DNA of 64,000 bases from an uncultured Acidobacteriaceae bacterium (lineage in GTDB: Bacteria > Acidobacteriota > Terriglobia > Terriglobales > Acidobacteriaceae): NCBI GenBank assembly GCA_963781245.1, contig CAWAFB010000026.1:17304-81303 (forward strand), written 5' to 3'. Numbering within the stretch: the first letter of the stretch is position 1; every line of letters begins with the position of its first letter. The notes beneath the pieces were generated by a model. It did no database searches. It was not told where the DNA came from and saw nothing but the letters and a program-made list of their open reading frames with translations. Below are positions 42,087-64,000 of the stretch, piece after piece. The position numbers and the translations under genes are program-made.

Positions 42087-42171
42087 TTATAACCGAAACG
42101 GCCAGTTGACCGTAATCGAGCGTAAGGAAGCGTAGTCTACTCAAGTTTAGCGCAAATAAGCGAATTATGAG

Positions 42172-42320
42172 TTTCTGTCCCTCGCTGTAAGTCTATGAAA
42201 ATAAAGCCAAGCCGAGCGTAATTAAGCGTAGCCCTAAGTAGTTGAGCGACCGTAATTTAGAGCAATTTATCCAAACAGGGAAAGGCTGATGAGTGTACCG
42301 CTGCTGTACCTGCAAGTTTC
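42172..42320. repeat. arm-type repeat (P arm), homologous to 25862-26010
   Basis: It directly follows the core at 42164-42171. Same order of motifs as the copy at site A (CTGTAAGTCTATGAAAATAAAG, GAGCGTAAT iterations, GGTACAGCAGCGGTACAC on the minus strand). Confidence 0.7.
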
Positions 42321-42367
42321 ATGAATGCGGTAGTTTTCTACCGCAAATGCAGTAAGATAATACTGCA

Positions 42368-42919: not shown

Positions 42920-42947
42920 ACACGAAGGCTGTCCCTCATTGGTTTTT
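42913..42947 (+). terminator. terminator-like hairpin overlapping the stop codon of the NTase gene
   Basis: CCAATGA-(16 nt)-TCATTGG followed by TTTTT. Confidence 0.55.
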
Positions 42948-42982
42948 CAGAGTTCAGGTTGTGTTGTCGGCAACCCGGACAT

Positions 42983-43840: not shown

Positions 43841-43957
43841 TACACCCGTTTTGGGGTAACTTCCGGGTGGACGGTTAACTGCCCAGAACCCGGTCGATGA
43901 GCGACTTGGCGATAAATCGCTCGCCGAGAACTCGCGCGACGACGGGCCTTCGAGCCC

Positions 43958-44745
43958 TCAAGCAACCTTTGGTTTCCAGCCCATCCAATCCAGTAGCCAG
44001 CGCCACGTCGCTACCTGCGTGTGCTCGGTCGGGGGCGGCAACAAGCTGCCCTTAGGGAACACAATCGGTTTTCCGCGATAGGTATTGGCCAGTTGTTTGA
44101 AGGTCCGGCCCTGCTCTTTCACGCGGCCGTCGTTGGTCAGGAGCCCCAGGTTGTACTCCAAAGGAGGGAAGAAACAAAACTTGGAATCAAGATCGTGCGT
44201 GTCCCAATAGCTGAACCAGCTCACGCCCTCATCGATCGCCGCCAGCACCGCTTTTTCGAGCCACGCGGCTTGATCCTTCTCGGAGAGTTCCTGAATACAG
44301 GTGTTGAACTCGCCTGCCCACACCGGTTTCTGCTGCGTCCCGGCATAGGAACGAATCAGCGCAGCCGTCACCGCCAGCAGCCGGACGCTCGGCGGATCCA
44401 TCGCGCCTCCGTACTTCATCGCGCCGGTCCAGTAGGGATAACTGCATTACCGGGAAACGAGCGGCGGCCAGCGCTTGCGGTGAAAACGCGACGGGAAGAG
44501 ATTGCCCCGTCGGCGTGATCGATTGGTCTTCGTACCACGAGTTAATCACTCCATTCACGTGGACGCGCCCGGGAAGAACCCCACCCGTGAGCGCGAACAT
44601 CCGCGCTTGGACTTCCTCGACAGCCGCCATTGCGTATGAATCGGCCGCTCTTCCTTCGCTTTTGCCGCATGCCGACAGATCACATCTGGATAATACTGCC
44701 CTCCAGGAGATTGCCTGAACAAAAGCGCTTCCTTTGCCCACACCC
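43958..44745 (-). pseudogene. glycoside-hydrolase-like (TIM-barrel) gene, apparently frameshifted
   Basis: The C-terminal ORF 43958-44419 contains ...VWAGEFN...WFSYWDTHD. The upstream part continues in another frame (ORF 44229-44882: ...AVEEVQARMFALTGGVLPGRVHVNGVINSWYEDQ...). The upper boundary is approximate. Confidence 0.4.
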
Positions 44746-44779
44746 TGCATCCATTCAGGACGCTGTATCAGGTTTAAGC

Positions 44780-46243: not shown

Positions 46244-46339
46244 TTCAATTGGCGTAAATGAATTCGTCCGGGATCCCTCGTCGATGGCCGTTCATTTTTC
46301 CATGTCAAGTCGCCTACCTCCACAGTAAGCGCGCACTAG

Positions 46340-48622: not shown

Positions 48623-48707
48623 TAACGTCCTTCTCCTGTGCGGCTGGCTGATGCCGCGTCGTTCGAACTACTTAGTCTCGTTCGCAGCTAACATTGATCC
48701 TTTTCGA

Positions 48708-50027
48708 TTACGGGTGCAGGGCCGCTTGTACTTTCCGGTCACTCAGTTGATTAAGCGTGTCGGCTTTGTTAGAGCTGAACTGACGGCCCAGTTGCGCGAA
48801 AAGTAGCTTTGCTTCATCCCCCTTTCCGACAGCGACGTATGCACGTGCCAGCAAATAGGTGGCGTTTCTGGCGTCGCGCTCGGGATTGGGCTCGAGTTCG
48901 CGCGCAATCTTCAAATCGACGATCGCATCTTGCGGACGGCCCACTTCCATTAGCCGTTCACCGCGTAGAACCCTTGCCGAAGCCGAAGTCGGATTCAGCT
49001 GGATTGCCCGGTCAAGTTCTGAAAGAACTATCGCGGGATCTGACCCATCGATCCGAACCAGGCACTCTGCCAATAAATAATGAAGATCGGAATCAACAAT
49101 TCCCGATCTTATTGCATTCCTCAATACCTGTACGGCTTCTTTAAACCTCGATCGTCGATAATCCGCCAGAGCTATGAAGAATGGAGGGTCGACATCCCGG
49201 GGCGAAAGTTTCGCAGCAGAAGCGAAATCACGATATGCAACCTCTATTTTGTTCTGGGAGAGTTCAATCGACCCGCGCATTGCGAGCGCTTCCGCGTTCT
49301 GGGGCAGAGCGGAAACGGCCTTATCTGCAACTTGTGCGGCCTTGTCTAGCTCTCCTGTGTCGACGAATAGTGTGATGAGATTGAAATAGGCATACGGACT
49401 CGAAGCATTCTGTCGAAGATTCTCAGCCATAACAATGTAGGCGTCCTGGTATCTCCCAAGCTTCGAATACGAGACGCCCAGCAGGTCCGCGCATTCGGCG
49501 TCGAATATCGCTTTCGAGCGGAGCGCGATGAGAGTATCGATAGACGTTTGATACTGCCCTAGTTCAAACTCCGTCAGGGCGATTGCATATCCATGTGTCA
49601 GCCGGTTCGGGACATCGGATTGAACTGACTTAAACAACTTGAGAGCGTTAGGAAGGTCACGCGCTTTGCCGTAGAGCCAACCGACATTGAATCGCTGAAT
49701 CGGTGACAGCTGTGGACAGTCTTCGAGACTTCGAAGAAGATCTTTCGCGCCTTGATAGTCCTTTCTCTCGAGGAGGGATTCCACTTGGGCAAAAGCCTTA
49801 TCGGCGACACATGGCTTCTCCACCTGGGATGCGCGGCTCAGACAAGGCACAAAAAAGCACAGTGCACCCATTAGCAACAATGCAAGGCCTCGAGACTCGT
49901 GAGTGCGCGGCATTGGACGTATCATCGGCTGAGTGCTTGTCACCAGGATGTCCCGTTTCCGGTTCGTTTCATGCCATTTCCCTCTGCACCGATGATCCAT
50001 ACGGGATGTGGAGCGACGCAGTGGCAT
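48708..50027 (-). CDS. TPR-repeat protein
   Basis: Multiple 34-residue repeats. A signal-like segment follows an internal Met (MIRPMPRTHESRGLALLLMGALCFF), so the true start is probably downstream of the ORF-track start. Confidence 0.65.
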   Translation of the reverse strand: MPLRRSTSRMDHRCRGKWHETNRKRDILVTSTQPMIRPMPRTHESRGLALLLMGALCFFVPCLSRASQVEKPCVADKAFAQVESLLERKDYQGAKDLLRSLEDCPQLSPIQRFNVGWLYGKARDLPNALKLFKSVQSDVPNRLTHGYAIALTEFELGQYQTSIDTLIALRSKAIFDAECADLLGVSYSKLGRYQDAYIVMAENLRQNASSPYAYFNLITLFVDTGELDKAAQVADKAVSALPQNAEALAMRGSIELSQNKIEVAYRDFASAAKLSPRDVDPPFFIALADYRRSRFKEAVQVLRNAIRSGIVDSDLHYLLAECLVRIDGSDPAIVLSELDRAIQLNPTSASARVLRGERLMEVGRPQDAIVDLKIARELEPNPERDARNATYLLARAYVAVGKGDEAKLLFAQLGRQFSSNKADTLNQLSDRKVQAALHP

Positions 50028-50046
50028 CTGCGCCGCTCCGCTTCCC

Positions 50047-53000
50047 CTAGAACAACACCTTCAGTCCAAATTGGATTTGACGGGCGGAAGCGCTGGTCGA
50101 TGTGATGCTCCCAAACGCCGACGACTGAACGTTATTGTTTGGCAATCCAAGCTGAGTTCGATTGAACAGGTTGAAGAATTCGGACTTGAACTGAACCGTC
50201 AGACGCTCGATTGTGAAGTCTTTGCGCGCATTGAAGTCTACGTTGAGGTAGCCAGGACCCACGAGGTCGTTTCTTCGCTCATTTCCGAACGTGAATGGAG
50301 CAGGAACTGTGAACTCTTGCGGGTTAAGCCACTCTTGTCGCGTCTTGGGAGCGCTGCCAGGCGCGTTTGGAATTCGCTCAGCTCTCTGCGGTCCACCGCC
50401 AGTGTTCGCAACATCGCCTCCGGCCATTGCGCTGAAAGGCAACCCCGAGTCCGCCGTAAAAATGCCGCCAATATTCCAGCCGCCAAGGACCGTATTTACA
50501 ACTCGATTTGCATTTGCCAAGTAGCGTTTCCCATTCCCGACCGGCAGCGCATACGAAGCCGCGAATGAAAACATCTGCGTCCTGTTGTAGTCGGATGGCC
50601 CGTAGTCCTGAGCCAGGTCGTAGAAATTGGTAAGAGTATCGGCTTGTGGGTCCGATGCCAAATCCATCGACTTGCCGTACGAGTAAGAGAGCAGGTAATA
50701 GAGCCCGCCTGCGAGTTCCTGCTTCAGCTTTACCTGGAGACCGTTGTAGTTTCCAGTTCCTTCGTTGTAGTCCCAGGGGACGGGTCCACCATATTGTGGA
50801 TATGGCTGTCGCGCAGAGATCGGGCCCGGCCCCGGCACGGTAGCGCTGTTTCCGTACGGTTGTAGAAATTCGTGTCTGCTTCCCGAAGCGACATAGTGGA
50901 CGCCGAGGACGAGTGTCCTTGTCAGTTGCTGTTCCACGCCGAGATTCCATTCCATGGAGTACGGAATATATGGATGTGGACTACCGCCGAAGCTAGCCAG
51001 CGGTTTGTTGGGATCGAGGAAGCTTGATGCGGGCGGAAGGGTATTGATAAACACAGACGGATATCCATTATCCTGATTGCTGATCGTGGTATAGATACCG
51101 GTCGGCCAAGAGAGGCGTATGTCTGATTGCTGCTCAATCAGCGTGTTGTTATGGTCGTCGATAATCACGAACGCGCCTTGAATGGCAGTTCGGTTCTCCG
51201 GTTGGTAAACAAAACCGAATCGAGGTTGCCATCCGTTCGTCTGGGGATAGTAATAGCTGCTAGGCCCGACAGCCTTCGGAAAGAGCGGCAAGACAGGGCC
51301 CGTGACATGGAAAATTCCTGTGAGCATGTCCAGACCCGAATTGATCTTGGAAAAGGTTGGCGGCGAGATGTAGTCGTAACGAAGACCGAAGGAGAGCACC
51401 AGATTCTTCAAAATGCGCCACTGATCCTGGGCGTAGATTCCGTACCAATTGATGTGTTGGTTTTCAGACGTATCACCGACCCAGGGAGTGTAGCTGTCCG
51501 GAGTACCGATGAGTAGGCTGGCCGGACCGTACCCTGTTCCGCTCTGCGAGCCGTCCGCAGAGGTCCCATTTGTGGTGAAGTTCATGGTGTATTGCCAACC
51601 GTCATCGAAGCTATGGATGTGGTAATACATACCTCCGACACCGATCGTGTGCTTTCCCTTGATCTTTGAAAGATCTGCGTGATAATCGCTGTTCTGTTGC
51701 GGACCTACGGGGGCCGCAAATTGACTCACTCCGGTATACCCGTTTGCGACTCCGATTCCAGGACCAAGAGGCAGGTCGTTCTTCACCGGGGCCGTCTCGG
51801 TGAAGTTCAGGGCATTAAGGAAGTCTGTGCCGGCAGGCTCATCGAAGATGGTGAAGGAAGTTTCGGTATATCCATAGCGCAGGTTGAGAATCGTATTTGG
51901 GCTAAAGATATGTGTGTATCCGCCGGCAAATGCCCGCGAATAGTTCGATTTATTCCCCACATAGCCGGGAAAACCCTCCGGACTTATCAAATTATTGTTC
52001 GACCGGTTGAACCGGAAGAACACTGTGTTGTTCGCGTTAAACTCGTGGTCGATGCGAACACCTACCTGATCTGCCTTTGTTGATGTGTTTCCGTTGAACG
52101 CGTAATTCGGAAGAGCTCCTGGCGCAACATTCAGGTTGGGCGCCGGATAGTACTTATTGAGAATGGCCAGTGCTGCCTGGTTGATCTGGTTTTGGGGAAT
52201 CGTGTTGTTCGGGTAGGGATTCCGGATGATCTTCGCAGGGTTTTGGGGATCCACAGTAGTCGAATACGGGTCGTAGATCTCATTCGCAAATTCCGGACGC
52301 CCTAGATCATCATTGCCGGTTGCGGTCGTTCCCAACACAGCCGAGAAGTCTCCGTTGCGCATAGCGTCGGTAAGCGTAGCCGACAAGTATGACTGTGTCT
52401 GCTCAGAACGAAAACCCTCCCAATATCCGGAAAAGAAGGTGTGATTCTTGATTATTGGACCACCAAAGAACACCCCGTATTGATTCTGCTTATATGGCGT
52501 TTCCGTAGTGGCCGGATAGGTCTTGGCGTCCAGTACGTTGTTGCGGATAAACTCATACACTGCTCCATGAAAGTCATTGGTTCCGGAGCGCGTAACGAGA
52601 TTGATGTTCGCGCCAGAACTGATCGCGAACTGGGCATCCGTGATGTGGGATTGGACGTTGAACTCCTGAATCGCGTCCGGTGGCGGGCTGATGGCAAAGG
52701 TATTCGTGAAGAGCGCGTTGTTCAGCACCCCGTCCATCGTGTAGTTATTTTGCTGCGGCCGTTGTCCATCGACCGACGGACTAACCGACCCGGCTCCAAG
52801 CGTCACGGTGAACGCCCCCTGCTGTCCGCCCTGAATGAGGGGAACGGCTCCAGGGGTGAGAAGTGTCAGCTGGTTGAATTGGCGCCCGTTCAGAGGCAGA
52901 TCTACGATAGCAGAATGACCAACGACTTCTGCCTGGGTGGCAGAAGTCGTATTGATTTGCGTAACATCCGCATTCACCTGAACAGTCTGCGTAGAAGCCG

Positions 53001-53346
53001 AAATCGACATTCTGAAATTCAATGCTTCGCTTTGGTTGACCTCGAGATGGACATTGTCCAGCTTTTGGGTTGCAAACCCCTCCTTGCTTACCGAGACGTT
53101 GTAGACACCGGGTTGCAATTCCGGCACCGAATAGTAGCCACTATTGTCGGTGACTGCCTTTCTCTGCACGCCGGTGGCCTGATTCGTCAGTTCCACCCGG
53201 GCGTCTGGCATCACTGCGCCAGACGAGTCGGTGATTGTACCGGTGATGAGGCCAGACGTTGTTTGACCACGAACCCACCCTGCAAATAGCAGTGCAAGAA
53301 TTCCGACCTGGAACGCGACAACGAACAACCTCTTCGACATACACAT
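50047..53346 (-). CDS. TonB-dependent receptor with a CarboxypepD_reg-like N-terminal domain
   Basis: 1099 aa. Signal peptide, ITGTITDSSGAVMPDARVELTNQATG Ig-like domain, a plug, and a beta-barrel ending ...QFGLKVLF. Confidence 0.85.
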   Translation of the reverse strand: MCMSKRLFVVAFQVGILALLFAGWVRGQTTSGLITGTITDSSGAVMPDARVELTNQATGVQRKAVTDNSGYYSVPELQPGVYNVSVSKEGFATQKLDNVHLEVNQSEALNFRMSISASTQTVQVNADVTQINTTSATQAEVVGHSAIVDLPLNGRQFNQLTLLTPGAVPLIQGGQQGAFTVTLGAGSVSPSVDGQRPQQNNYTMDGVLNNALFTNTFAISPPPDAIQEFNVQSHITDAQFAISSGANINLVTRSGTNDFHGAVYEFIRNNVLDAKTYPATTETPYKQNQYGVFFGGPIIKNHTFFSGYWEGFRSEQTQSYLSATLTDAMRNGDFSAVLGTTATGNDDLGRPEFANEIYDPYSTTVDPQNPAKIIRNPYPNNTIPQNQINQAALAILNKYYPAPNLNVAPGALPNYAFNGNTSTKADQVGVRIDHEFNANNTVFFRFNRSNNNLISPEGFPGYVGNKSNYSRAFAGGYTHIFSPNTILNLRYGYTETSFTIFDEPAGTDFLNALNFTETAPVKNDLPLGPGIGVANGYTGVSQFAAPVGPQQNSDYHADLSKIKGKHTIGVGGMYYHIHSFDDGWQYTMNFTTNGTSADGSQSGTGYGPASLLIGTPDSYTPWVGDTSENQHINWYGIYAQDQWRILKNLVLSFGLRYDYISPPTFSKINSGLDMLTGIFHVTGPVLPLFPKAVGPSSYYYPQTNGWQPRFGFVYQPENRTAIQGAFVIIDDHNNTLIEQQSDIRLSWPTGIYTTISNQDNGYPSVFINTLPPASSFLDPNKPLASFGGSPHPYIPYSMEWNLGVEQQLTRTLVLGVHYVASGSRHEFLQPYGNSATVPGPGPISARQPYPQYGGPVPWDYNEGTGNYNGLQVKLKQELAGGLYYLLSYSYGKSMDLASDPQADTLTNFYDLAQDYGPSDYNRTQMFSFAASYALPVGNGKRYLANANRVVNTVLGGWNIGGIFTADSGLPFSAMAGGDVANTGGGPQRAERIPNAPGSAPKTRQEWLNPQEFTVPAPFTFGNERRNDLVGPGYLNVDFNARKDFTIERLTVQFKSEFFNLFNRTQLGLPNNNVQSSAFGSITSTSASARQIQFGLKVLF

Positions 53347-53498
53347 GCCCCCAATTGAAGCGAGATTGAGATCTAGACAAGCAACATGATTTCCTGCTTG
53401 CTTCCACGCAGCACGGGGTCATGAACCAACAACTGTCAAATTTGGGCGGCGATGTTTTGAACTCGACACGTAAGCATCCTCCGCAGCCCATGGGGGTT

Positions 53499-53512
53499 GG
53501 AAGCACTTAAAC
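53499..53512. promoter_or_regulatory. putative operator GGAAGCACTTAAAC (site 1)
   Basis: One of four copies of AAG[C/T][A/G]CTT(AAA). It lies about 155 bp upstream of the TonB receptor start. Confidence 0.45.
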
Positions 53513-53624
53513 GATGAGCAAACTAGATCATAAAACCACAGAATGTCAAGATATATTTTTTAACATTTTTTAAATCAATAGGTTACTGTCATCAAATCTT
53601 GGCCCCGGCAAAAACTTTAGTATT

Positions 53625-53638
53625 AGAAGTACTTAAAC
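53625..53638. promoter_or_regulatory. putative operator AGAAGTACTTAAAC (site 2)
   Basis: Perfect palindrome AAGTACTT. It differs from site 1 (126 bp away) at 2 of 14 positions. Confidence 0.45.
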
Positions 53639-53818
53639 TTATAAAGCGACCAAATACTATCTTCCCCCAAACGCCAACTATGGAGACACTCTGAGAACAA
53701 CGCGCGAAGAGTGCCGGGCGTGATTCGCGCAGAACAGCTCCCTTCTCAGAGGACGGAGCGGGGCCGCGGCAAATCCTGATCGCGTTTACACTGAGCCTGA
53801 CTATGGGAATCAGGCGTT

Positions 53819-54142
53819 TCAGTCGACGTGAAATACTTCTTCCATCTCTGCCCACCACTCGCCCTCATTCCGGGTAGGCAGGGGATCTTGCATAGGGCCC
53901 ATAATTGCCCACCATTCCTGGGTTTTCTGGTCGGCGGCCATCTTTGCCCAATCCTTCTTAACGTCCGCTCCGTGATATTCGAAATATCCGAATAAGACTC
54001 CGTCCTTTAAGAAGACGGAGTAGTTGCGAATATTGCACTCCGAGATCTTGCTCAGCACTTCCGGCCACACAGCTGCGTGATACCTCTTGTACTCGTCTAC
54101 GCACCCCGGCTTGAGACGGATCATGGTGCCGAATCGTTGCAT
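53819..54142 (-). CDS. L-rhamnose mutarotase-family protein (RhaM/DUF718; a deoxy-hexose mutarotase)
   Basis: 107 aa: MIRLKPGCVDEYKRYHAAVWPEV...IRNYSVFL...FGYFEY...W. Confidence 0.8.
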   Translation of the reverse strand: MQRFGTMIRLKPGCVDEYKRYHAAVWPEVLSKISECNIRNYSVFLKDGVLFGYFEYHGADVKKDWAKMAADQKTQEWWAIMGPMQDPLPTRNEGEWWAEMEEVFHVD

Positions 54143-54201
54143 ATCGAACTCCTTTGAAACGGAGCCATGCTACATCTCGATCTTGTGCGGAGCAAGTAGA
54201 T

Positions 54202-54215
54202 CTCAAGTGCTTGGA
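54202..54215. promoter_or_regulatory. putative operator CTCAAGTGCTTGGA (site 3)
   Basis: It lies in the divergent rhaM-like/GntR intergenic region. Its 11-mer CTCAAGTGCTT is repeated in inverted orientation at site 4. Confidence 0.45.
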
Positions 54216-54261
54216 TTTTTCTTGACACTGCGGGGGGCGGTATTTAGGATGACGCTTCACG

Positions 54262-54276
54262 ATTTAAGCACTTGAG
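54262..54276. promoter_or_regulatory. putative operator ATTTAAGCACTTGAG (site 4)
   Basis: The reverse complement is CTCAAGTGCTTAAAT. It ends 3 nt before the GntR start codon (54279). Confidence 0.45.
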
Positions 54277-54278
54277 TT

Positions 54279-54962
54279 ATGCCCGCTCCTTCCGCACTTG
54301 CGTCCAATGGCCTCGTCAAGAAGACTCTGGCCGAAAAGTTATTGGCAGAAATCATGAATGGAACTCTGTCGCCCGGCACACGCATTGTCGAAGTTACCTG
54401 GGCACAACATTTTGGCGTGGCAGGGGGAACAATCCGCGAGGCAATCAATCTTCTTGAGCGGGACGGCTTCGTCACCAAGGAAGGTGGTCGCAGCGCTCGC
54501 GTGATCAATCTGACCGAAAAAGATGTTGTCCAGCTTTACCAAATGCGCAGCGCGATTGAGGGCCTTGCAGCAAATCTCGCAGCACAAGCGCAGCCAGATT
54601 TCTCAAATCTACAGTCCATCGTAGAGGGCATGCGGCGTGCTGCCAAGGCAAAGAGCGCTGCGAACTTGCTCGATTGGGATCTGAAGTTTCATCTGGAGCT
54701 TTGCAGTCTTTCCGGCAATAAACACCTTTTCGACTATGCCCAACGCATGCTGACGCCGTTTTTCGCTTTTGTCCGGCTGCGGATAATTTCAGGAGGGCAA
54801 GGCACATCGGTGTGGGACAAAGACCTTGAATCACATCAACGGATCGTTGATTTGCTCCGCGAGGGTGATGGGGAGATGGCAGAGCAATACGTAAAGAAGG
54901 CTATGGTTCGATTTGCGAAAACTGCATACGACAACTGGGTTGCACATGGAAAAAGAGCTTGA
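54279..54962 (+). CDS. GntR-family transcriptional regulator (FadR/FCD subfamily)
   Basis: N-terminal wHTH (LAEKLLAEIMNGTLSPGTRIVEVTWAQHFGVAGGTIREAINLLERDGFV) plus an all-helical C-terminal domain. Confidence 0.8.
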   Translation: MPAPSALASNGLVKKTLAEKLLAEIMNGTLSPGTRIVEVTWAQHFGVAGGTIREAINLLERDGFVTKEGGRSARVINLTEKDVVQLYQMRSAIEGLAANLAAQAQPDFSNLQSIVEGMRRAAKAKSAANLLDWDLKFHLELCSLSGNKHLFDYAQRMLTPFFAFVRLRIISGGQGTSVWDKDLESHQRIVDLLREGDGEMAEQYVKKAMVRFAKTAYDNWVAHGKRA

Positions 54963-55713
54963 TGGGAAGGTAATTATTCTGACTGGCGGGGCGAGCGGGA
55001 TTGGTCGCGAATGTGCCATTGCCTATGCGCGTGAAGGGGCGACGGTGGCGATCCTTGACCGCAATTTCGAAGAGGCTAAGGACGCGGCGAAAGAAATTGG
55101 CAATAGCAGTACCGCTTATCACGCCGATGTTTCGGACGGAGGGGCAATCCAAACCGCGATTACCGCAGTACTGAAGGATTTCGGACGTCTCGATGCTGTG
55201 CACAACAATGCCGGAATTGTGGGACCATCCTGCGCGCTGCACTATACTACCGAGGCCGAGTGGGACGATCTTCAATGTACAAACCTGAAATCTGTTTACT
55301 GGACGACGAAGTATGCGTTTCAGTCTCTGGTCGAATCCAAGGGCGCAATTCTTAATACGGCCAGCATGGTCGGACTCCTAGGTCAACAGAACCACGCAGC
55401 CTACGTTGCGACCAAGGGTGGGATGATTTCGCTTACCAAGGCGATGGCGGCTGATTACGCAAAGTATCACATCAGGGTGAATGCGGTCTGTCCTGCGGGC
55501 GCATGGACGCCGATGCTGGAGCAGTGGGCCGCAGACCAGCCCAATCCGGCTGGCATACGCCAGTATCTCGATGACATCCATCTTCTCGGCTATTGTCCGC
55601 GCGGCGATGTTATTGCCGATGCAGCCACTTTTCTACTTTCATCCAAGGCCCGATTTATCACTGGATGCATCTTGCCGGTGAGCGGCGGCGCTGAGCTTGG
55701 TTACAGACGTTAA
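54946..55713 (+). CDS. SDR-family oxidoreductase (candidate L-fucose or 2-keto-3-deoxy-L-fuconate dehydrogenase)
   Basis: TGGASGIG Rossmann motif from ATG 54946 and a YxxxK motif (YVATKGG). The substrate is inferred from context only. Confidence 0.75.
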   Translation: MEKELDGKVIILTGGASGIGRECAIAYAREGATVAILDRNFEEAKDAAKEIGNSSTAYHADVSDGGAIQTAITAVLKDFGRLDAVHNNAGIVGPSCALHYTTEAEWDDLQCTNLKSVYWTTKYAFQSLVESKGAILNTASMVGLLGQQNHAAYVATKGGMISLTKAMAADYAKYHIRVNAVCPAGAWTPMLEQWAADQPNPAGIRQYLDDIHLLGYCPRGDVIADAATFLLSSKARFITGCILPVSGGAELGYRR

Positions 55714-55725
55714 CTGGAATGGGAC

Positions 55726-56973
55726 ATGCCTGACTACACAATTCAATCCATCTCAACGTATGATGCTCGGTTTGTCTTGCCTCCGGGTGCTGGTACAGAC
55801 TCGATTCACGCAACTTCCGAATACTGCCTGGCAATGACATTGTTGTCGACGCAGGACGGTCCCCGGGGATCAGGTTTCGTCCTGACGCTCGGCGACGGCA
55901 ATATCCTGGTTTGCAAAGCAATCGAGATGCTGGCGAAACCTCTTAAGGGCATGTCCATCGAAGCCGTAATGGCCGACTTCGGAAATATATCCCGAAGCAT
56001 CGCGGATCACGCTGCACTACGCTGGCTCGGACCTCACAAGGGTGTTGTGCAATTGGCATTGGCGTCCATAACCAACGCGTGCTTCGATCTGTGGGCAAAG
56101 AGCCGAGGCGTACCCCTCTGGAAGCTGTTGCTTGATCTCAAACCGGAGGAACTCGTCCAAGTCCTGGACCTGAGTTATCTCGAAGAGATACTCAGCGAAG
56201 CAAAGGCTCTCTCGATGTTGCGTGAGCAGCTTCCCAGCCGCACACAACGGGAAGTCATCTTAAAGTGTGGCTATCCCGGCTATGACACATCCGTGGGCTG
56301 GATGGACTACGACGATAAAAAGGTCACGGAATTGACAAAGAAGGCTCTGGATCAGGGATTCTCCGCATTCAAATTGAAGGTCGGTTCGCGGGAAGAAAGT
56401 CGAGATCTGCGGCGTGCAGCGATGCTGCGCAACCTGATTGGAGAAGAGAGCACGTTGATGTTCGATGCCAACCAGCACTGGCCTCTTACTGACGCCCTTC
56501 GTATCTGTGGAGAACTGGCGAATTTCCGTCCCCACTGGATCGAAGAGCCGACCCATCCCGATGACATACACGCTCACGTGGAATTATCTCGTGCGGTGAG
56601 CCCAATCAAGATTGCGGCCGGAGAACACATCGCAAACCGTGTTCTGTTCAAGAACTTTATGCAGGCAAAGGCGTTATCGTTCATCCAGGTGGATTGCACC
56701 AGGGTCGCAGGCGTCAGTGAGTTCCTGACTGTCAGTTTCCTTGCGAAGATCTTCGATCTTCCTGTGGTCCCGCACGTTGGCGACATGGGACAAATGCATC
56801 AGCACCTGGTTCTCTTCAACCATATCGGGCTGGGGCTCAAAGCAGAGTTCCTCGAGTACATTCCTCACCTTCGGACTCACTTTATCCATCCAGCGCAAGT
56901 GAAGGATGGTGTCTATCAGATCCCCCAGGAACCTGGCGCCTCGGCGGATCTGAAGGTGCTGTCTTACGCTTAG
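55726..56973 (+). CDS. fucD: enolase-superfamily dehydratase, L-fuconate dehydratase-like
   Basis: 415 aa, mandelate racemase/muconate-lactonizing family layout (FKLKVG, MFDANQ, WIEEP). The N-terminus resembles FucD-type enzymes. Specificity is inferred. Confidence 0.6.
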   Translation: MPDYTIQSISTYDARFVLPPGAGTDSIHATSEYCLAMTLLSTQDGPRGSGFVLTLGDGNILVCKAIEMLAKPLKGMSIEAVMADFGNISRSIADHAALRWLGPHKGVVQLALASITNACFDLWAKSRGVPLWKLLLDLKPEELVQVLDLSYLEEILSEAKALSMLREQLPSRTQREVILKCGYPGYDTSVGWMDYDDKKVTELTKKALDQGFSAFKLKVGSREESRDLRRAAMLRNLIGEESTLMFDANQHWPLTDALRICGELANFRPHWIEEPTHPDDIHAHVELSRAVSPIKIAAGEHIANRVLFKNFMQAKALSFIQVDCTRVAGVSEFLTVSFLAKIFDLPVVPHVGDMGQMHQHLVLFNHIGLGLKAEFLEYIPHLRTHFIHPAQVKDGVYQIPQEPGASADLKVLSYA

Positions 56974-57046
56974 CTGGCTCAGCAATCTGCTGTGCGTCCG
57001 CGGTCTTCGCAGAGCAGACCACTTCTAGCGATCTCGGATCCTTTTT

Positions 57047-57892
57047 ATGGGTAATGCTTGCGTTGATGCACACCAGCACTTGTGGCGCTATCTTGCTCCG
57101 GGGCCTGCCTGGATGGCAGATGGCATGGAGGGCTTGCGCCGAAATTTTCTGCTGGATGACCTCCGGGCGGTAACCGCAGACTCAGGTGTCACTAGCACGA
57201 TCGTTGTTGAGACTGAAAGGACCACGGAAGAGACAGTATGGCTCAGCCAACTTGCTGCAGAGAGCGAGTTGATTTGTGGTGTTGTGGGGTGGGTGCCTCT
57301 AACAACTCCAGCAGCTGAGTCACAGCTGGAACGAATAGCTAGTCTCCCAAAACTGAAAGCAGTACGTCATCCGATTCATGATGAATCGGATGATCAGTTC
57401 GTCTTGCGAAACGACTTCAACCGCAGCATCGCAGCATTGAGGCGGTTTGATCTCAGGTACGACATTCTGATCTTTGAGCAACATCTTCCCCAAACGATTC
57501 GATTTGTGGATCGGCATCCGAGGCAAGTGTTCATTCTCGACCACGCTGCCAAACCGCGCATTCGCGATGCCGTACTTTCCCCATGGAAAGAGAACATGCG
57601 AGAACTTGCTCGAAGACCGAATGTTTACTGCAAGATTTCCGGCATGGTGACAGAGGCGGACTGGAAAACTTGGTCTGATGCAAGCCTTTCTCCATATATC
57701 GAAACCGTTTTGCAGGCTTTCACTCCGAAACGCGTCATGTTCGGTTCGGACTGGCCTGTCGTGACTCTGGCCTCTTCATATAAACGATGGATCGGCACCG
57801 TGCGAACTGCGATAGAGCAACTGTCAGCGACAGAAAGAGAGTGGATTCTCGCGAAGACGGCCATCGAAGCCTACGGTCTCTCGCTGACCTAG
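57047..57892 (+). CDS. amidohydrolase_2-family protein (L-fucono-lactonase-like)
   Basis: An N-terminal DAHQHLW metal motif, 281 aa, and a fucose-pathway context. Confidence 0.65.
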   Translation: MGNACVDAHQHLWRYLAPGPAWMADGMEGLRRNFLLDDLRAVTADSGVTSTIVVETERTTEETVWLSQLAAESELICGVVGWVPLTTPAAESQLERIASLPKLKAVRHPIHDESDDQFVLRNDFNRSIAALRRFDLRYDILIFEQHLPQTIRFVDRHPRQVFILDHAAKPRIRDAVLSPWKENMRELARRPNVYCKISGMVTEADWKTWSDASLSPYIETVLQAFTPKRVMFGSDWPVVTLASSYKRWIGTVRTAIEQLSATEREWILAKTAIEAYGLSLT

Positions 57893-57971
57893 ATCGCAAC
57901 GACCGCACGATCGAAATTGCTAAGAATCCGATCCATCACAAATACGCAATGGTAATAAAAGACAACCCAAT

Positions 57972-59057
57972 ATGACTCCGACAATCGAAAACCCGAGTTG
58001 GGGAGAAAAAAGAGACGGTGCGCACGTGGGTTCAATTGCGGATAACTCCGCGGTAGATCTCTACACGCTGAAGGATGAAGGCATCGAGGTGGAAGTCATC
58101 AGCTATGGTGCCCGCATCGTCTCCATTCGCACACCGGATCTATACGGGAAGATAGCAAATGTGGTTCTCGGCTATTCTCACCTGGGAAGCTATATTGCTG
58201 ACCAGGCGTCCTATCTTGGAGCGGCTGTAAGGCGTTACGCGAACCGCATCGCTTCTGGTCGATTCTCAATCGGGCGATCACAGTTATCAAGCCTCAACGA
58301 ACAACCACGGCAATATACATTGCATGGTGGAATATCCGGATTCGACCGTCGGGTCTGGTCAGCGCAGCCGTTCTCCTCCGGAGTAGATCTGGCACTTGAA
58401 AGTGAGCACGGCGACCAGGGCTTCCCGGGAAATCTGAGAGTCCGTGTCCGCTATTCGATTTTGCCCAACGCCCTTCGCATCGACTATTTCTCTTCAACCG
58501 ACCAAACAACCGTAGTCAACCTGACGAATCACACCTATTTCAATCTCTCGGCGTGCAGCGATACGACGATCCTTGAGGACAAACTGACGATTGCGGCGGA
58601 CCAGTTTACTCCGATTGATTCACTCTTGATCCCCACTGGAAAGCTGTGTCCCGTGGAGGGTACGCCTTTTGATTTTCACTCTCCGAGCGTGATCGGTGCA
58701 CGGATTGATAGCGATCACGAGCAATTGAAGTTTGCAGACGGGTACGATCACAACTTCGTCTTGAATGGGTCACGCGGTGAATTGAGAACTGTGGCGCGTC
58801 TCAGCAATCCACGAAGCGGTCGTACCGTTACCGTTTCCACTACGGAACCGGGACTGCACCTCTACACCGGCAATTTCTTGGACGGCACTCGGTACGGCGA
58901 AGCCCAGGAGGGACACCGAAGACGCTCCGGGCTCTGCATGGAGACACAGCATTTCCCGGATTCACCCCATCATCCGAATTTTCCTTCAACAGAGTTACAT
59001 CCGGGACAAGCGGGACGCAGCACGACGCTCTTTGAATTTTCAGCGATACGCCAATGA
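57972..59057 (+). CDS. galM: aldose 1-epimerase (galactose mutarotase family)
   Basis: 361 aa with NLTNHTYFNL, HGG and a C-terminal ...LCMETQHFPDSPH motif set. Confidence 0.75.
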   Translation: MTPTIENPSWGEKRDGAHVGSIADNSAVDLYTLKDEGIEVEVISYGARIVSIRTPDLYGKIANVVLGYSHLGSYIADQASYLGAAVRRYANRIASGRFSIGRSQLSSLNEQPRQYTLHGGISGFDRRVWSAQPFSSGVDLALESEHGDQGFPGNLRVRVRYSILPNALRIDYFSSTDQTTVVNLTNHTYFNLSACSDTTILEDKLTIAADQFTPIDSLLIPTGKLCPVEGTPFDFHSPSVIGARIDSDHEQLKFADGYDHNFVLNGSRGELRTVARLSNPRSGRTVTVSTTEPGLHLYTGNFLDGTRYGEAQEGHRRRSGLCMETQHFPDSPHHPNFPSTELHPGQAGRSTTLFEFSAIRQ

Positions 59058-61450
59058 GAGCAATCATCGCAGCAACGCTAGTAATCGGAGCCACTTTCTC
59101 TCCTTACGCAGGGTTGGCGCAGAGTGCCAGCAAGTACACTTCCGCTTCGAGCGCGACTAGTGACTGGCCGGCATATGGAGGTCAGCTCACGAATCAGCAT
59201 TATTCGAGCCTTACCCAGATCAATCGCAGTAATGTGAAGAGGCTGAAGGTGGCTTGGATGTATGACACCGGCGAGGAGGGTGGACTCGAGACAAATCCCT
59301 TGATCGTCGGAGACACACTTTATGCATATACACCCGCCCAAAAAGTGATTGCTCTAGACGCGGTGACGGGAAGATTGTTGTGGAAGTTTGATGCAGGTAT
59401 CAAGGCGGAACAACCTGCGCGCGGAGTGGCTTATTGGACCGACGGAAAAGAGGGCAGGATTTTCGCAGGGTTAATGAACTACCTCTATGCGCTCGATCCG
59501 AAAACTGGCAAACCAATTCCTTCGTTTGGCGATGAAGGAAGAGTCGACCTCAGAAAGAATCTGCGGGGCGATTACCAGCTTCAGTCGATTGCGCTTACCA
59601 CTCCAGGCATCGTGTACAAGGATCTCATCATCGTAGGCGGCGAGATGCCGGAGACACTTCCAGCTCCGCCTGGCGATATCCGTGCGTTCGATGTCCACAC
59701 TGGTGCGCTTCGCTGGAGCTTTCATACGATTCCGCATCCCGGCGAGTATGGGTATGAAACGTGGCCTTCGAACGCATGGAAGACATCTGGCGCTGCCAAT
59801 AATTGGGCCGGCATGTCAGTCGATATGGAGCGTGGGATTGTGTATGTCCCAACGGGTTCGGCATCGTTCGATTTCTATGGAGGCGACAGGATAGGTGACG
59901 ATCTCTTTGCGGATACATTGTTGGCGCTCGATGCCTCTAGCGGAAAGCGACTCTGGCATTTCCAGGATGTACATCACGACATTTGGGATCGAGATTTTCC
60001 GTCAGCTCCAACCCTTTTGACAGTGACTCATCACGGAAAGCGCGTGGACGCCGTCGCACAAACCACCAAGACTGGCTACCTTTATCTCTTCGATCGCGTG
60101 ACCGGTGAGCCGTTGTTTCCGATCGAAGAACACAGTTATCCAGCAAGCACCGTTCCCGGAGAAGTCGCGTCGCCAACACAACCTAGACCGGTCAAGCCTG
60201 CTCCATATGCCCGGCAATCGCTCACCGAAGACATGTTGACCAATCGAACGCCTGAAGCACATGCGTGGGCGGTCGATAAATTCCGCAGCTTTCGTAGCGA
60301 CGGTTTGTTTGTCCCATTTGGATTGGACAAACAGACCGTCATATTTCCTGGATTCGACGGCGGAGCGGAGTGGGGCGGTCCTGCAGTCGATCGAAAAACA
60401 GGCGTTGTTTACGTCAACGCCAATGAAATGGCCTGGACAGGAGGACTAATAGCGGACAAACGTGCCCGCACCGCGGGAGAGATGATTTATCGGAGTCAGT
60501 GCGGTGTCTGTCATGGAGTTGATAGAAGCGGATCACCGCCGGCCTTCCCATCGCTGATCGGAATCAGCAAGAAGCTTACCGAAACAGAAATTATCGCAAT
60601 TATCCATCAAGGAAAAGGGAGAATGCCGACCTTCCCTAACCTGACAGCCTCCCAACTGATGAGTTTGCTGCAGTTTCTGCACGACGAGCCTGCTGCCTCC
60701 GGTAGAACTCAGCCGGCGAGCGACAAGCAAGAGATGGTTTCGGTCGCGGCAGACTCTGCCAAGACCGACCCAAAAGGGGCAGAGGTCTACCAGGAGCACT
60801 GTGCAATCTGTCATGGCGAACATATGGAAGGAATCACTCCATCTTTCCCCACGCTGATAGGTGCCGGTCAACGCTTGGCCAAAGACCAGGTCGTGACGCT
60901 CATTCACCAGGGAAAAGGAAGGATGCCGGCCTTCCCGAAATTACACTCGGAAGAACTGGATTCTCTGCTGCGCTATCTGAAAATCTCAGATTCGCTGGAA
61001 ATCCCCGGTTCTGATGAACCACAATATAGTTTTACCGGCTATCGCAAATTTCTGGATCCCGATCATTTTCCCGCCATCGCTCCGCCATGGGGCACGCTCA
61101 GCGCAATTGATCTCAATACTGGGAACTACTTGTGGAAGATTCCGCTGGGTGAGTATCCGGCCCTCGCGGCAAAAGGCATGAAGAATACAGGGTCAGAGAA
61201 TTACGGTGGCCCCATCGTGACAGCTGGTGGGTTGGTTTTCATTGGTGCCACTCTTTACGACAACAAATTCCACGCCTTCGACAGCCATAACGGAAAGCTG
61301 TTGTGGGAAGCCCAGCTTCCCTACGCTGGGCGCGCAACTCCGGCGACATTCATGATCCAGGGAAAGCAGTACATTGTTATCGCAACCGGTGGTGGCAGAT
61401 ATCAGATCGCTCCGGCTAGGGGAGTTTATGTCGCATTCTCGTTGCCCTGA
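59054..61450 (+). CDS. PQQ-dependent dehydrogenase beta-propeller with two internal c-type cytochrome domains
   Basis: Signal peptide, propeller sequence with W-motifs, and two CxxCH sites (CGVCHG, CAICHG) followed by GKGRMP(T/A)FP repeats. The start ATG overlaps the galM stop (ATGA). Confidence 0.7.
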   Translation: MRAIIAATLVIGATFSPYAGLAQSASKYTSASSATSDWPAYGGQLTNQHYSSLTQINRSNVKRLKVAWMYDTGEEGGLETNPLIVGDTLYAYTPAQKVIALDAVTGRLLWKFDAGIKAEQPARGVAYWTDGKEGRIFAGLMNYLYALDPKTGKPIPSFGDEGRVDLRKNLRGDYQLQSIALTTPGIVYKDLIIVGGEMPETLPAPPGDIRAFDVHTGALRWSFHTIPHPGEYGYETWPSNAWKTSGAANNWAGMSVDMERGIVYVPTGSASFDFYGGDRIGDDLFADTLLALDASSGKRLWHFQDVHHDIWDRDFPSAPTLLTVTHHGKRVDAVAQTTKTGYLYLFDRVTGEPLFPIEEHSYPASTVPGEVASPTQPRPVKPAPYARQSLTEDMLTNRTPEAHAWAVDKFRSFRSDGLFVPFGLDKQTVIFPGFDGGAEWGGPAVDRKTGVVYVNANEMAWTGGLIADKRARTAGEMIYRSQCGVCHGVDRSGSPPAFPSLIGISKKLTETEIIAIIHQGKGRMPTFPNLTASQLMSLLQFLHDEPAASGRTQPASDKQEMVSVAADSAKTDPKGAEVYQEHCAICHGEHMEGITPSFPTLIGAGQRLAKDQVVTLIHQGKGRMPAFPKLHSEELDSLLRYLKISDSLEIPGSDEPQYSFTGYRKFLDPDHFPAIAPPWGTLSAIDLNTGNYLWKIPLGEYPALAAKGMKNTGSENYGGPIVTAGGLVFIGATLYDNKFHAFDSHNGKLLWEAQLPYAGRATPATFMIQGKQYIVIATGGGRYQIAPARGVYVAFSLP

Positions 61451-61552
61451 TCTCGGGTATCGAAGCGCGGAGCAAAATTTTCGGGATGGAACTCAGGGTG
61501 TAGGAGTCGATGAAACTATGCCATCTATCTACGACACGGCGCTCAATGTTGA

Positions 61553-61828
61553 ATGCGCACATTCGCTCGTTTGTCGATGAGGCAAACCTGGGCTGCCGAA
61601 TATGGACCAAAGGGGGTCCGCGTGAACACAGTGAGTCCAGGACCCACACGCACGGAGGGTACGGAGGCGATGGGCGAGGGTCTCGAACAGCTAGCCGCCC
61701 AGGCGCCCGCGGGACGTCCGGCAACAGCCGATGAAATTGCAGAAGCAATTGTCTTCCTGGCGACAGACCGCGCCAGCTTCATTCACGGCGCAAAACTCGC
61801 CGTGGATGGAGGGCGCACCGCCATCTGA
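61553..61828 (+). pseudogene. SDR-family oxidoreductase, C-terminal third only
   Basis: ...TWAAEYGPKGVRVNTVSPGPTRT...ADEIAEAIVFLATDRASFIHGAKLAVDGG. The Rossmann and catalytic regions are missing, and only about 100 nt separate it from the upstream gene. Confidence 0.65.
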
Positions 61829-62067
61829 ATAAATCCGGCAACTCAGCCGCTTTCAATCGCCCAATTCTGCTCGCCGGTCTCACCTGTGCGTTAGAACCAA
61901 GGCTAAGGTTTGGGCAGAGGTCGTGGGTTTGATATGGGTTCGATAACGGTTCCCGATCGTTCCTTACAGCGCCAAAAGAAGCCATCTGTTTTCGCTGTTA
62001 CGGTCATCCGCGGGTTACGCGGGTGACCCCATCCAATCGCAAATCAGAAGCCAATTAGGGGCCTGCA

Positions 62068-62095
62068 CGACTCGGCGCTGTACCGCCTGTGCACC
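62068..62095. repeat. conserved 28-nt block distal to the island-borne tRNA (paired with 41962-41989)
   Basis: See 41962-41989. Confidence 0.6.
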
Positions 62096-62129
62096 CAAAA
62101 TAGGTTGGATAAACGTGGAAATGGTGATT

Positions 62130-62206
62130 TGGTGGGCCTACCAGGACTCGAACCTGGAACCAAAGCATTATGAGTGCTCTGCTCTAACCGATTGAGCTAT
62201 AGGCCC
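62130..62206 (-). tRNA. tRNA with anticodon CAT (Met or lysidine-type Ile2), second copy
   Basis: Identical to 42010-42086 except for one base (62139 T versus 42019 C). That change turns the 6:67 pair from G-U to A-U. Confidence 0.85.
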
Positions 62207-62284
62207 TTACCGCTCGGCAATACTAAACGAGCCGAACTTAGAGTAAAGGACCGTAATCAACAGTAATTGAGCGTAATTTAGAGA

Positions 62285-62322
62285 TTATGAGTCCCCTGCT
62301 CTGACCATTGAGCTACAGGCCT
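62285..62322 (-). pseudogene. tRNA(CAT) 5' half: acceptor 5' strand, D arm, 5' anticodon stem and loop, with no 3' half
   Basis: The reverse complement reads AGGCCTG-TA-GCTC-AATGGTCA-GAGC-A-GGGGA-CTCATAA, and then non-tRNA sequence follows. Confidence 0.7.
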
Positions 62323-62325
62323 TCA

Positions 62326-62703
62326 ATGACTTATTGCAACCGCAGATTTGATTGTAGCGAATTGCAGCGGGTCCTTGGCGAATCCCTGCGTCCGGTTTCG
62401 GAAGCTTACCTGCACGGGCGTTTAGTACTTCGAGTCGCTGAAATGCACGTTCCACAGCTTCAGGGGAAGGATGCACGTACGCTGGCTCACAGTGACGCTA
62501 CTGTGGCCTGCGATCTTCATAGTTGTAAATGCTTCGGCACCTGCCTCTCCTAGCCGGGTGAGCATTGTGTGTCGTAAAGAATGCAGTACAAACTCTTTCG
62601 AGAAGCGATAAACACGTTTCCCTCTGACCGTGGTATGGGCGACCTTTGCATGCATATGATCGAGCGATGTCACAAGGAATAGTCGGCTTCGAATGATGCT
62701 CAC
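62326..62703 (-). pseudogene. tyrosine integrase remnant: N-terminally truncated and frameshifted at the catalytic Tyr codon
   Basis: ...FVLHSLRHTMLTRLGEAGAEAFTTMKIAGHSSVTVSQR, then a frame change. Restoring one T near 62479 gives QRYVHPSPEAVERAFQRLE. The downstream frame reads into the tRNA half. Confidence 0.75.
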
Positions 62704-62952
62704 CTGCGGTCTGAGCGCTCAGTCACTGAGAGGGAGGTGGGGTCAAATCTCTGTGGAGTTTCAACCTTTAGACCGTTCTGGCGTGAAATTTGTGCTTCCC
62801 TCAAAAAAGATTTTTTAAGGTGGCGGTGAAGAAGTCGCCAGGTTCAACTGACGCCTAGACGCGGAGCCACGCGCTCACAAATGCCCGCTCGGGGGCACGA
62901 CAGCAGAGCTGATTCAAAATGGTTGCCGTTAACGCAAGTCGGCTTAACGGAA

Positions 62953-63796
62953 GTGCGCGCTGAGCAGCACGTTGTTCAGGAGGGTTAAAGTCCCTCTGGC
63001 GCCCAAATGAGGGGCGCCATATCCAAAAGCGGGGTTCGTAGCCTCGCCGGCCGGAGAAAGTGGAAGGTATGGAGACGTCTAAACGGGCACGAAGGCGAAA
63101 GCTGGACACAGCCAAGACGGACCTGAAGCCGCCGCTTGTGGTACTCCGGAGGGCAGGGTGTCCACCGTGAGGTGGGATCCGAAGGGCATGAGGAGAAGTA
63201 CCGGGCCGTAATCGATGGGGAAACCCAAGATGAACCGGTCGGCCAAAGGTGGGACAAGGTCGAGTCTGCACTTCTGAGACGAAGGCGTTCTCATTCACCC
63301 ACCGCACCAAGGTGTTTGCGGACGGCACGGTACGGAAGAACAGCGTGTGACCTCAGGAGGACTGATCAAGTCTCCGGGTGGCAACCGGAGTAAGCAAGCC
63401 TATAAGCGTAAGCGAAGTGGTGAGTGATGCTCGGTCAGTAGTCGGACTGCCAAATATTACCTCAAGCGCGGCGAAAGCCGCGTGACCGAGTGATCGGCGG
63501 CTAGAGTGGGTCGGGGAAGGTGGCAGGCGAAGGCAGGAAGGAAGAGACGGGCAGTCAGCAGAGTAAGGATGATGAGGTGGATCAGTTCGCTTAGCGAAAA
63601 ACCCGTACATCATCGTCCGAGGATACTGAAGGCCCGACCCAACCGGACGGGTGAAACGAATGGCCCACTTGTTCGTTGCCTTTTCGTTGCATCTTGGAGT
63701 CCCGTGTCTTCGTGAAAGCCGTGTGCGGGAAAACTGCATGCACGGTTTGGGCGGCGGACGGAGGCCAGCGCGTAAGCGCGCCTCCTCCGACCCGAC
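62953..63796 (+). mobile_element. ORF-less group II intron-like ribozyme, copy 2 (about 844 nt)
   Basis: 5' GTGCG. Domain V is at 63716-63748 (AAGCCGTGTGCGGGAAAACTGCATGCACGGTTT). Domain VI ends ...CCGACCCGAC. It is roughly 85% identical to copy 1 by eye, except for a divergent domain IV stub. Confidence 0.8.
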
Positions 63797-64000
63797 AAAT
63801 GTCCGGATAGCAGGAGATCCTTCATGCGACATGACGGAATGCGCCGGGAATCGACGCCTGCTCGCGGCCGCAACAATTGAAGTGAGCTGGAGAGAAGAGC
63901 CCTTCGAAGAGTCCTGGCTTGAGTTCCTTCAGGAGCGCCACAACTTCAGATGTAGCCATCGCCGATGTATCCGCGCCAGTGCCTTTCATCCTTGTGCCTT

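Follow-up and report, generated by a model that had tools for sequence, protein, structure and literature searches.

The 64-kb window (the whole stretch of DNA that was analyzed), from a soil acidobacterium, probably represents a tandem pair of integrase-less remnants of site-specific elements that used tRNA-dependent integration, in which an island-borne tRNA(CAT) gene, here designated B, replaces a host tRNA(CAT) gene, A, that has been split. Read along the minus strand, the order is the A 5′ half, a core, a spacer, tRNA B, island 2, an arm, a core, a spacer, tRNA B′, island 1, an arm, a core, and the A 3′ half, the arrangement expected if two related circular elements, each having arm, core, spacer, and tRNA as its attP, had integrated at the anticodon loop of tRNA A. 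This interpretation draws on the split itself, the lack of a rebuilt tRNA, a recurring module, an associated integrase family, the complementarity between carrying a tRNA and splitting the target, and the isotype features of the tRNAs, all of which can be read from the DNA.

Host tRNA gene A and its intact relatives

The two halves of tRNA A are 36.4 kb apart, split at the anticodon loop; the 5′ half, the core, and the 3′ half, when joined, fold into a cloverleaf. The displaced 3′ half (25817-25853, minus strand; CCTTTGGTTGGGGGTTCGAATCCCTCCGGGCCCACCA) comprises the 3′ strand of the anticodon stem, the variable loop, the T arm, the 3′ strand of the acceptor stem, and CCA. It borders the chromosomal left flank and matches the 3′ halves of intact tRNA A in two related loci (L002 and L060). 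The orphaned 5′ half (62293-62322, minus strand) has lost one G of its 5′ GGG, resulting in an A1·C72 mismatch. No rebuilt tRNA was called at the 62268-62322 junction, for which the Rfam score was 24.4 bits, below the threshold of 29. The proposal in the initial annotation that the element destroys its tRNA target is therefore upheld: tRNA A is split, its two halves flank the islands, and the gene is not rebuilt.

The nearest public sequence, L001 (ENA ERZ25039522 contig_23882), is about 99.7% identical to the window and has the same arrangement. Over 11.6 kb, about 28 substitutions and one 15-nt indel distinguish the two sequences, and these differences cluster in the att module around tRNA B (61923 and 62007-62289). 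The lost G in the 5′ half of the window, together with the mutated core of L001 (ACTGATAAT), may be taken as signs of relaxed constraint. The host halves in the window are still nearly intact; the disruption of tRNA A could be recent, and a need for B is presumed.

At the 5′ end of tRNA A ends int′ (62326-62703, minus strand), the decayed C-terminal remnant of an older tyrosine recombinase, with frameshifts at the catalytic Tyr and close to the stop codon. A TACAAT sequence within it (62351-62356) is the likely, predicted promoter of tRNA A. Homologues of int′ number more than 1,000, and all of the 120 best-scoring ones listed are no longer than 226 aa. In seven related loci (L002-L008), an intact type-A tRNA(CAT) of 74-76 nt begins 0-10 nt after the stop codon of the remnant. 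Since the remnant precedes an intact tRNA A in these relatives, the arrangement is evidently old and conserved on the chromosome, and the tRNA has since been split in the genome from which the window derives. The int′ gene was also considered as the integrase of the islands and rejected, given that it is of another family, is decayed, and stands before an intact tRNA in the seven other loci, all of which mark it as an older resident.

More broadly, int′ belongs to a family of tyrosine-recombinase remnants that are short (97-226 aa), are truncated at the N terminus, and end in the tail PATISAT..AVSH; their stop codon abuts the 5′ end of tRNA-Ile2 in many Acidobacteria; besides the window copy, members were noted in L002-L008, L043, L065, L066, L078, L079, L081, and L083. 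A TACAAT box, about 30-45 nt ahead of the tRNA, is encoded by the conserved tail, and supplying the tRNA promoter may be the reason why the remnant persists; the remnant may also derive from an element that included the 5′ part of its target. In L002, the intact tRNA A is followed directly (10830-11000 of that locus) by a fragment ending like an integron-type integrase and then by an IS3-family transposase, suggesting that tRNA A is a busy integration site.

Island-borne tRNAs B and B′

ARAGORN and Rfam identified exactly two complete tRNA(CAT) genes in the 64-kb window, both on the minus strand and both of the tRNA-Ile2 type: B′ (42010-42086; 71.9 bits in Rfam) and B (62130-62206; 74.2 bits, against a gathering score of 29). 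As the initial annotation had described, both are 77 nt long and differ by one base in the acceptor stem; the difference, 42019 C versus 62139 T on the plus strand, gives a U6·G67 pair in B′ and a U6-A67 pair in B. The C4-G69 and C5-G68 pairs and the UGGUU variable region that had been pointed out are likewise present in both genes. Identity between B and B′ is 98.7%, as compared to 57% for the spacers, which had rightly been called poorly conserved, and 51% for the sequences downstream. Over the whole modules of the two islands, identity outside the tRNA ranges from 51 to 75%, with one compensated base differing inside it. When the window is compared to L001, tRNA B shows no differences even though the surrounding module differs, with seven changes in the 206 nt flanking B within 62007-62289 versus roughly 0.2% elsewhere. 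The conservation of B amid diverging flanks, both between islands and relative to L001, suggests that this tRNA is under selection. Gene conversion could add to the identity of B and B′, though not to the conservation of B relative to L001.

A scan of viral contigs with the anticodon arm of B recovered only unrelated tRNAs of low-GC phages, none with the module. In 13 such contigs (L009-L021), a tRNA(CAT) has the anticodon arm and variable loop of B (GAGCA-CTCATAA-TGCTT-TGGTT), together with acceptor and T arms unlike those of B.

Isotype of tRNAs A and B

The gene for tRNA-Ile2, the tRNA in which TilS turns C34 into lysidine and which is charged with Ile, is reportedly single-copy as a rule, and essential. 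Both A and B have a CAT anticodon and are devoid of initiator features (no A11-U24). Their acceptor stems, GGGCCCG/CGGGCCC for A in the relatives and GGGCCTA/TAGGCCC for B, both contain G3-C70, C4-G69, and C5-G68. According to the 234-genome survey by Silva et al., G3 or C70 excludes tRNA-Met and tRNA-fMet and indicates tRNA-Ile(CAT), of which C4-G69 and C5-G68 are typical (PMC1635315). The resemblance to lysidine-type tRNA-Ile2 that was proposed initially fits these discriminators in both A and B. Assignment to elongator tRNA-Met, often a multicopy gene, so that the split would be harmless and the island copies ordinary duplicates, is quite improbable: the ARAGORN label is indeed tRNA-Met, since this program cannot separate the CAT types, but G3-C70 is a complete negative discriminator for tRNA-Met and tRNA-fMet, an argument that is strong and not final in that the survey is without Acidobacteria and identity rules vary between phyla (PMC1635315). 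A further locus, L043, has a B-like tRNA at the site of an integrase remnant, making A and B lineage variants of one tRNA species. Thus, A and B are most likely the same species, tRNA-Ile2, as predicted from the discriminator positions.

Cores, spacers, and putative arm-type sites

The 9-bp sequence ACTCATAAT occurs in five copies on the minus strand of the window, where 0.2 would be expected, and none of 100 shuffled sequences reached five. Two copies are the anticodon loops of B and B′, and the other three are the cores of the junctions: an attR-like junction between an arm and the host 3′ half (25854-25862), the center of an attP-like junction between island 2 and island 1 (42164-42172), and an attL-like junction between the host 5′ half and a spacer (62284-62292; this is the copy that is mutated in L001).

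Between the cores and the tRNAs are spacer 2 (42087-42163, minus strand, leading to B′ and containing TTACGSTC repeats) and spacer 3 (62207-62283, minus strand, leading to B). The distance of exactly 77 nt reported by the initial annotation applies to both of these spacers but not beyond the window, given that 20 distinct related modules of other genomes have spacers of 75-77 nt, most commonly 76 nt. Judging from these modules, 77 nt is no universal constant; the length is near-constant across lineages, with the sequence free to vary. Derivation of the spacer from a decayed tRNA 3′ half plus intergenic DNA was rejected because alignment scores in the 20 modules were about those of shuffled sequences (z about 0); likeness to the anticodon-stem strand extends over the first ~9 nt only and is found in one lineage only.

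On the other side of their cores lie the two P arms, arm 1 of island 1 (25863-26001, minus strand) and arm 2 of island 2 (42173-42311, minus strand), which are 139 nt long, 75% identical, and adjoin the cores that begin at 25854 and 42164, respectively. Arm 1 contains a GGTACA-N5-GGTACA pair at 25984-26000, a TTACGCTC site, and a TTTACA-N16-CATAAT element overlapping the core, and arm 2 contains the same pair at 42294-42310, two TTACGSTC sites, and CTTACA-N16-CATAAT. Similar pairs recur in the P′ arm-type blocks downstream of B′ (41962-41996, minus strand; GGTGCG-N5-GGTACAG at 41973-41989) and of B (62068-62102, minus strand; GGTGCA-N5-GGTACAG at 62079-62095); the integrase gene that follows this block in intact elements is missing after B′. 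Each tRNA in the window thus has a GGTACA pair after it, and each arm has a further one at its outer end. In related loci of both layouts described below, a GGTACA-N5-GGTACAGTG pair is found 55-60 nt before the start of the integrase gene, often with an inverted TGTACC after it. The TTACGSTC repeats are concentrated in the att modules, which account for seven of nine matches in the window. The presence of GGTACA pairs on both sides of the core is the pattern expected of arm-type sites, to which an integrase would presumably bind. The attP order for the family as a whole is GGTACA-N5-GGTACA, about 110 nt, ACTCATAAT, 75-77 nt, a complete tRNA-Ile2-type gene, 20-35 nt, a second GGTACA pair, and the integrase gene.

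At attP-like junctions, arm and core together form a promoter-like site (TTTACA or CTTACA, 16 nt, CATAAT) pointing toward the spacer and the tRNA; at the junction with the host 5′ half, its −35 element is lost. The TACAAT at 62351-62356, which is conserved in the remnant tail of relatives, could provide read-through into B. Within the spacers of the window, no sigma-70 promoter candidate reached the scan threshold, and there was no convincing conserved one.

Island cargo

Island 1 (cargo at 26002-41961) encodes two PAS histidine kinases, DUF3300 and DUF4136 proteins, and an OmpA-like protein, as identified with Pfam. Its GC content is about 0.53-0.60, as compared to about 0.58-0.60 in the left flank, and is lowest (0.53-0.54) in the first 7 kb of the island. 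The cargo of island 2 (42312-62067) includes an HTH-nucleotidyltransferase, a group II intron lacking an ORF, a fucosidase, a GH42 enzyme, a TPR protein, a TonB-type outer membrane barrel, a GntR regulator, an enolase-family enzyme, an amidohydrolase, an aldose epimerase, and a PQQ dehydrogenase. None of the Pfam phage-structural families was found among the major island ORFs; the islands are non-phage, and their cargo consists of ordinary accessory metabolism and signaling genes. No integrase was detected in either island using Pfam on the large ORFs, an HMM search of all six-frame ORFs, or tblastn with the integrase of L027, a related locus described below. Mobility of the two island copies in the window is thus historical at best.

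The HTH-nucleotidyltransferase (42368-42919, plus strand) adjoins arm 2. Its 183 aa include a MarR-type HTH at the N terminus and a nucleotidyltransferase domain (Polbeta / NTP_transf_2), it resembles MNT-type antitoxins, and no partner gene was noticed beside it. A repeat at 42966-43840 and 62938-63800, initially a candidate for an island backbone, proved to be two copies of an ORF-less group II intron with unrelated flanks. These copies are about 860 nt long (about 42983-43841 and about 62953-63805, both plus strand), are 70-92% identical along their length, and were recognized in Rfam by domain V (39.6 and 43.7 bits), with D1-D4 just under threshold. Each lies on the opposite strand from the tRNAs, with an att core 650-800 nt away.

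The module and its integrase family in other genomes

When one genome per species was scanned with a 42-mer of B, 33 loci were obtained from about 30 Acidobacteriaceae or Terriglobales genomes. These fall into two classes: an ordinary 76-nt chromosomal gene with nothing upstream, and a 77-nt island type preceded by a CTCATAA core at a distance of about 77 nt, the latter at no fewer than 10 loci in 8 Acidobacteriaceae or Terriglobales genomes. What lies upstream of the core is an arm in L022 and L035 (which are on one contig), L023/L031, and L054, and elsewhere it is a host 5′ half. L024 and L027 have a half that looks intact, and L029 (isolate KBS 146), L030, L047, and L053 have one that is clearly degenerate; in each of the 8-kb loci fetched, no complete tRNA other than B matched the search pattern. 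That the orphaned half has decayed in several species speaks for a takeover by the island tRNA. In total, 20 distinct versions of the module (half-tRNA or arm, core, 75-77 nt, whole tRNA) were collected; the combination seen in the window, which the initial annotation had suggested looking for elsewhere, is found at island boundaries in many other genomes.

Among the loci of the genome scan, only L027 keeps an intact integrase, a protein of about 350 aa the gene for which begins 80 nt after tRNA B; it matched no specific NCBIfam or Pfam family, only the generic PF00589. Using this integrase as a query, a metagenome scan returned more than 541 relatives with 72-87% identity, from which 80 loci were kept. 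In nearly all of these, the integrase gene is located 80-260 nt downstream of a tRNA and is co-oriented with it; the anticodon is CAT in most, with Leu or Lys tRNAs in the remainder. Sufficient upstream sequence was available for 46 CAT loci. In the majority (32), int comes after a plain intact tRNA and there is no split half upstream, i.e., a restoring layout, and 14 have a replacing layout: a 5′ half, ACTCATAAT, 75-77 nt of non-tRNA sequence, a complete tRNA, about 80 nt, and int. Carriage of a tRNA and splitting of the target thus go together without exception in this sample, with the target split by 14 of 14 elements that have their own tRNA and intact at 32 of 32 loci of elements that do not. 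An integrase accompanied by the same module is present in L027, L117, and 13 other loci and is absent from the islands of the window, in which the GGTACA pairs remain. In a rough neighbor-joining tree of the integrases, without support values, the replacing layout appears in at least 3-4 clades interleaved with the restoring layout.

The same integrase family also occurs behind tRNA-Leu(CAA/TAA) and tRNA-Lys(CTT), with anticodon loops ACTCAAAAT, ACTTAAAAT, and ACTCTTAAT (L071, L073, L077, L087-L089, L092-L096, L099-L101, L105-L111 including L110, L115, L116, L119, and L134). No replacing layout was seen at the tRNA-Leu or tRNA-Lys targets of these loci.

This complementarity, the fixed place of the tRNA inside attP in every lineage, the decay of host 5′ halves in several genomes that have B as the one pattern-matching tRNA per locus, and the occurrence of tRNA-Ile(CAT) in nearly all 234 bacterial genomes of the Silva et al. 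survey (PMC1635315) all weigh against B being accessory cargo, i.e., a gene for extra decoding or for countering tRNA-targeting defense in a host that kept another functional tRNA-Ile2 and for which the split was costless. That alternative is unlikely, even though the sequence searched comprised the 64-kb window and 20 kb of the near-identical contig, two B copies are present where one suffices, and tRNAs on mobile elements often serve other purposes (PMC10865867).

One related locus, L117, is a complete element of 10.4 kb with its integrase, bounded by a host 5′ half at one end and by an arm, a core, and a host 3′ half at the other. Its cargo includes TrbL/VirB6, a T4SS protein, and MobC, indicating that it is of a conjugative rather than viral type. 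The existence of such an element bears on whether the modules of the window result from site-specific integration or from a chromosomal tRNA region that was duplicated or rearranged in the ordinary way. Islands without an integrase would be in keeping with the latter origin, but it would have to place its breakpoints exactly at a 9-bp core within the anticodon loop and to produce arms and P′ blocks with the paired sites that lie ahead of an integrase at more than 20 other loci, as well as islands with parts of somewhat lower GC content than the flank; it can be regarded as very improbable.

Proposed integration mechanism

Under tRNA-dependent integration, the reading favored here, a tyrosine integrase would exchange strands within the 9 bp common to the core and the anticodon loop of host tRNA A. 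Because homology ends at the core, the host tRNA gene would be split: its 5′ half would then abut the spacer and tRNA of the element, and its 3′ half would end up at the opposite end of the insertion, here at a distance of 36.4 kb. Decoding would be taken over by tRNA B, which the element supplies and which is presumed to be expressed from a putative promoter, to be lysidine-modified, and to be needed by the host. A second related element would have recombined with one of the hybrid att sites, generating the attP-like middle junction, in a presumed order of island arrival. Both islands would later have lost their integrase genes, and the orphaned host halves would have begun to decay.

The junctions do not support the suggestion of the initial annotation that the next arrival targets an element already in place through its tRNA. 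Both B and B′ are whole and there are no orphan B halves, so that the second element is best explained as having used a flanking hybrid att site, consistent with the attP-like middle junction. Integration of the second island into the tRNA of the first was rejected on the anatomy of that junction (arm, core, spacer, tRNA).

A broader and tentative proposal, more apt to prove wrong than right, is that the tRNA-in-attP module acts as a one-way ratchet, swapping the host tRNA-Ile2 for a foreign one. The island would be locked in after loss of its integrase and the site would stay open to further arrivals, building integron-like arrays of integrase-less cargo islands that could be mobilized in trans, and the 75-77 bp between core and tRNA, kept in lineages with unrelated spacers, would reflect functional coupling. 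If so, once the host halves have decayed, excision would remove the only working copy, locking the island in. One possible form of coupling is that the core doubles as the −10 element of the TTTACA-N16-CATAAT promoter, driving the tRNA only in the attP or tandem configuration.

Implications

The replacing layout accounts for about 30% of the sampled tRNA-Ile2 sites and is associated with one conserved integrase family. Its range covers Acidobacteriota as well as lineages with D-loop sequences unlike the acidobacterial type, and its carriers include conjugative-type and cargo islands, not phages alone. The long-term outcome would be that the host tRNA-Ile2 gene decays and a horizontally acquired gene becomes the resident one, providing a route for tRNA gene turnover and a possible way for islands to become fixed. 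Programs for mapping islands that expect a restored tRNA would mis-map islands of this kind, and tRNA annotation would report the gene as tRNA-Met.

Comparison with known systems

The integration strategy, presented as unusual in the initial annotation, is unusual but not new. Experimental proof of tRNA-dependent lysogeny in actinobacteriophages was provided by Guerrero-Bustamante and Hatfull in 2024 (PMC10865867): the core is 8-17 bp, the tRNA is not rebuilt, and a cognate phage tRNA is required for viable lysogens. Examples include Fionnbharth and LeBron (tRNA-Lys), Gaia (tRNA-Leu), and OneUp and Mollymur (tRNA-Ile2-CAT), with cores of 9-10 bp in the phages targeting tRNA-Ile2-CAT (PMC10865867). 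The elements described here have in common with these phages an attB in a host tRNA gene, a short core (9 bp here), a tRNA that is not rebuilt, and an element tRNA of the same isotype (here a prediction). The phages have a tyrosine integrase with arm-type sites; here, such an integrase and candidate arm-type sites are seen together in intact relatives of the islands. In both systems, moreover, close relatives without a tRNA rebuild the target, and the trait is scattered over the integrase tree. Among the sequence-level features of tRNA-dependent integration, an attB overlapping a tRNA gene, a short core, and a matching isotype are all found here; a temperate phage is not. Unlike the actinobacteriophages, the present elements are non-phage, with metabolic and signaling genes in the islands of the window and conjugation genes in L117, and their hosts are Acidobacteriota and other bacterial groups, the latter judged by tRNA sequence type only. 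The tRNA is here located inside attP, 75-77 bp from the core and between the core and int, whereas in Fionnbharth it is elsewhere in the genome. The window in addition displays what appears to be the long-term outcome, namely integrase loss, tandem arrays, and decaying host halves. The authors of the phage study asked how frequent tRNA-dependent integration is beyond actinobacteriophages (PMC10865867); this locus and its relatives suggest that it is widespread.

Replacement of a host tRNA has also been recorded in Sinorhizobium meliloti, in which tRNA-Leu(UAG) was replaced by prophage-related sequences according to a bioinformatic analysis (PMC11476347), and for the Lj965 prophage of Lactobacillus johnsonii (as cited in PMC10865867). 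As these sources present them, such cases share with the present one an inactivated host tRNA, substitution by an element tRNA of the same isoacceptor type, and an incoming tRNA that resembles those of other taxa. They are bioinformatic cases involving prophages, and the fixed attP-tRNA geometry and the family-wide survey noted here do not figure in the accounts available of them.

With canonical genomic islands as described in the Islander model (PMC4383910), the elements share a tyrosine integrase in their intact members, a tRNA target, an anticodon-loop crossover, a displaced fragment at the far end, and tandem arrays. In contrast, canonical islands restore their target by means of a carried fragment (PMC4383910), whereas the present elements leave the target unrestored and bring a separate, complete gene. 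The strategy is thus a known one, here in a non-phage version, in another phylum, and with the tRNA built into attP.
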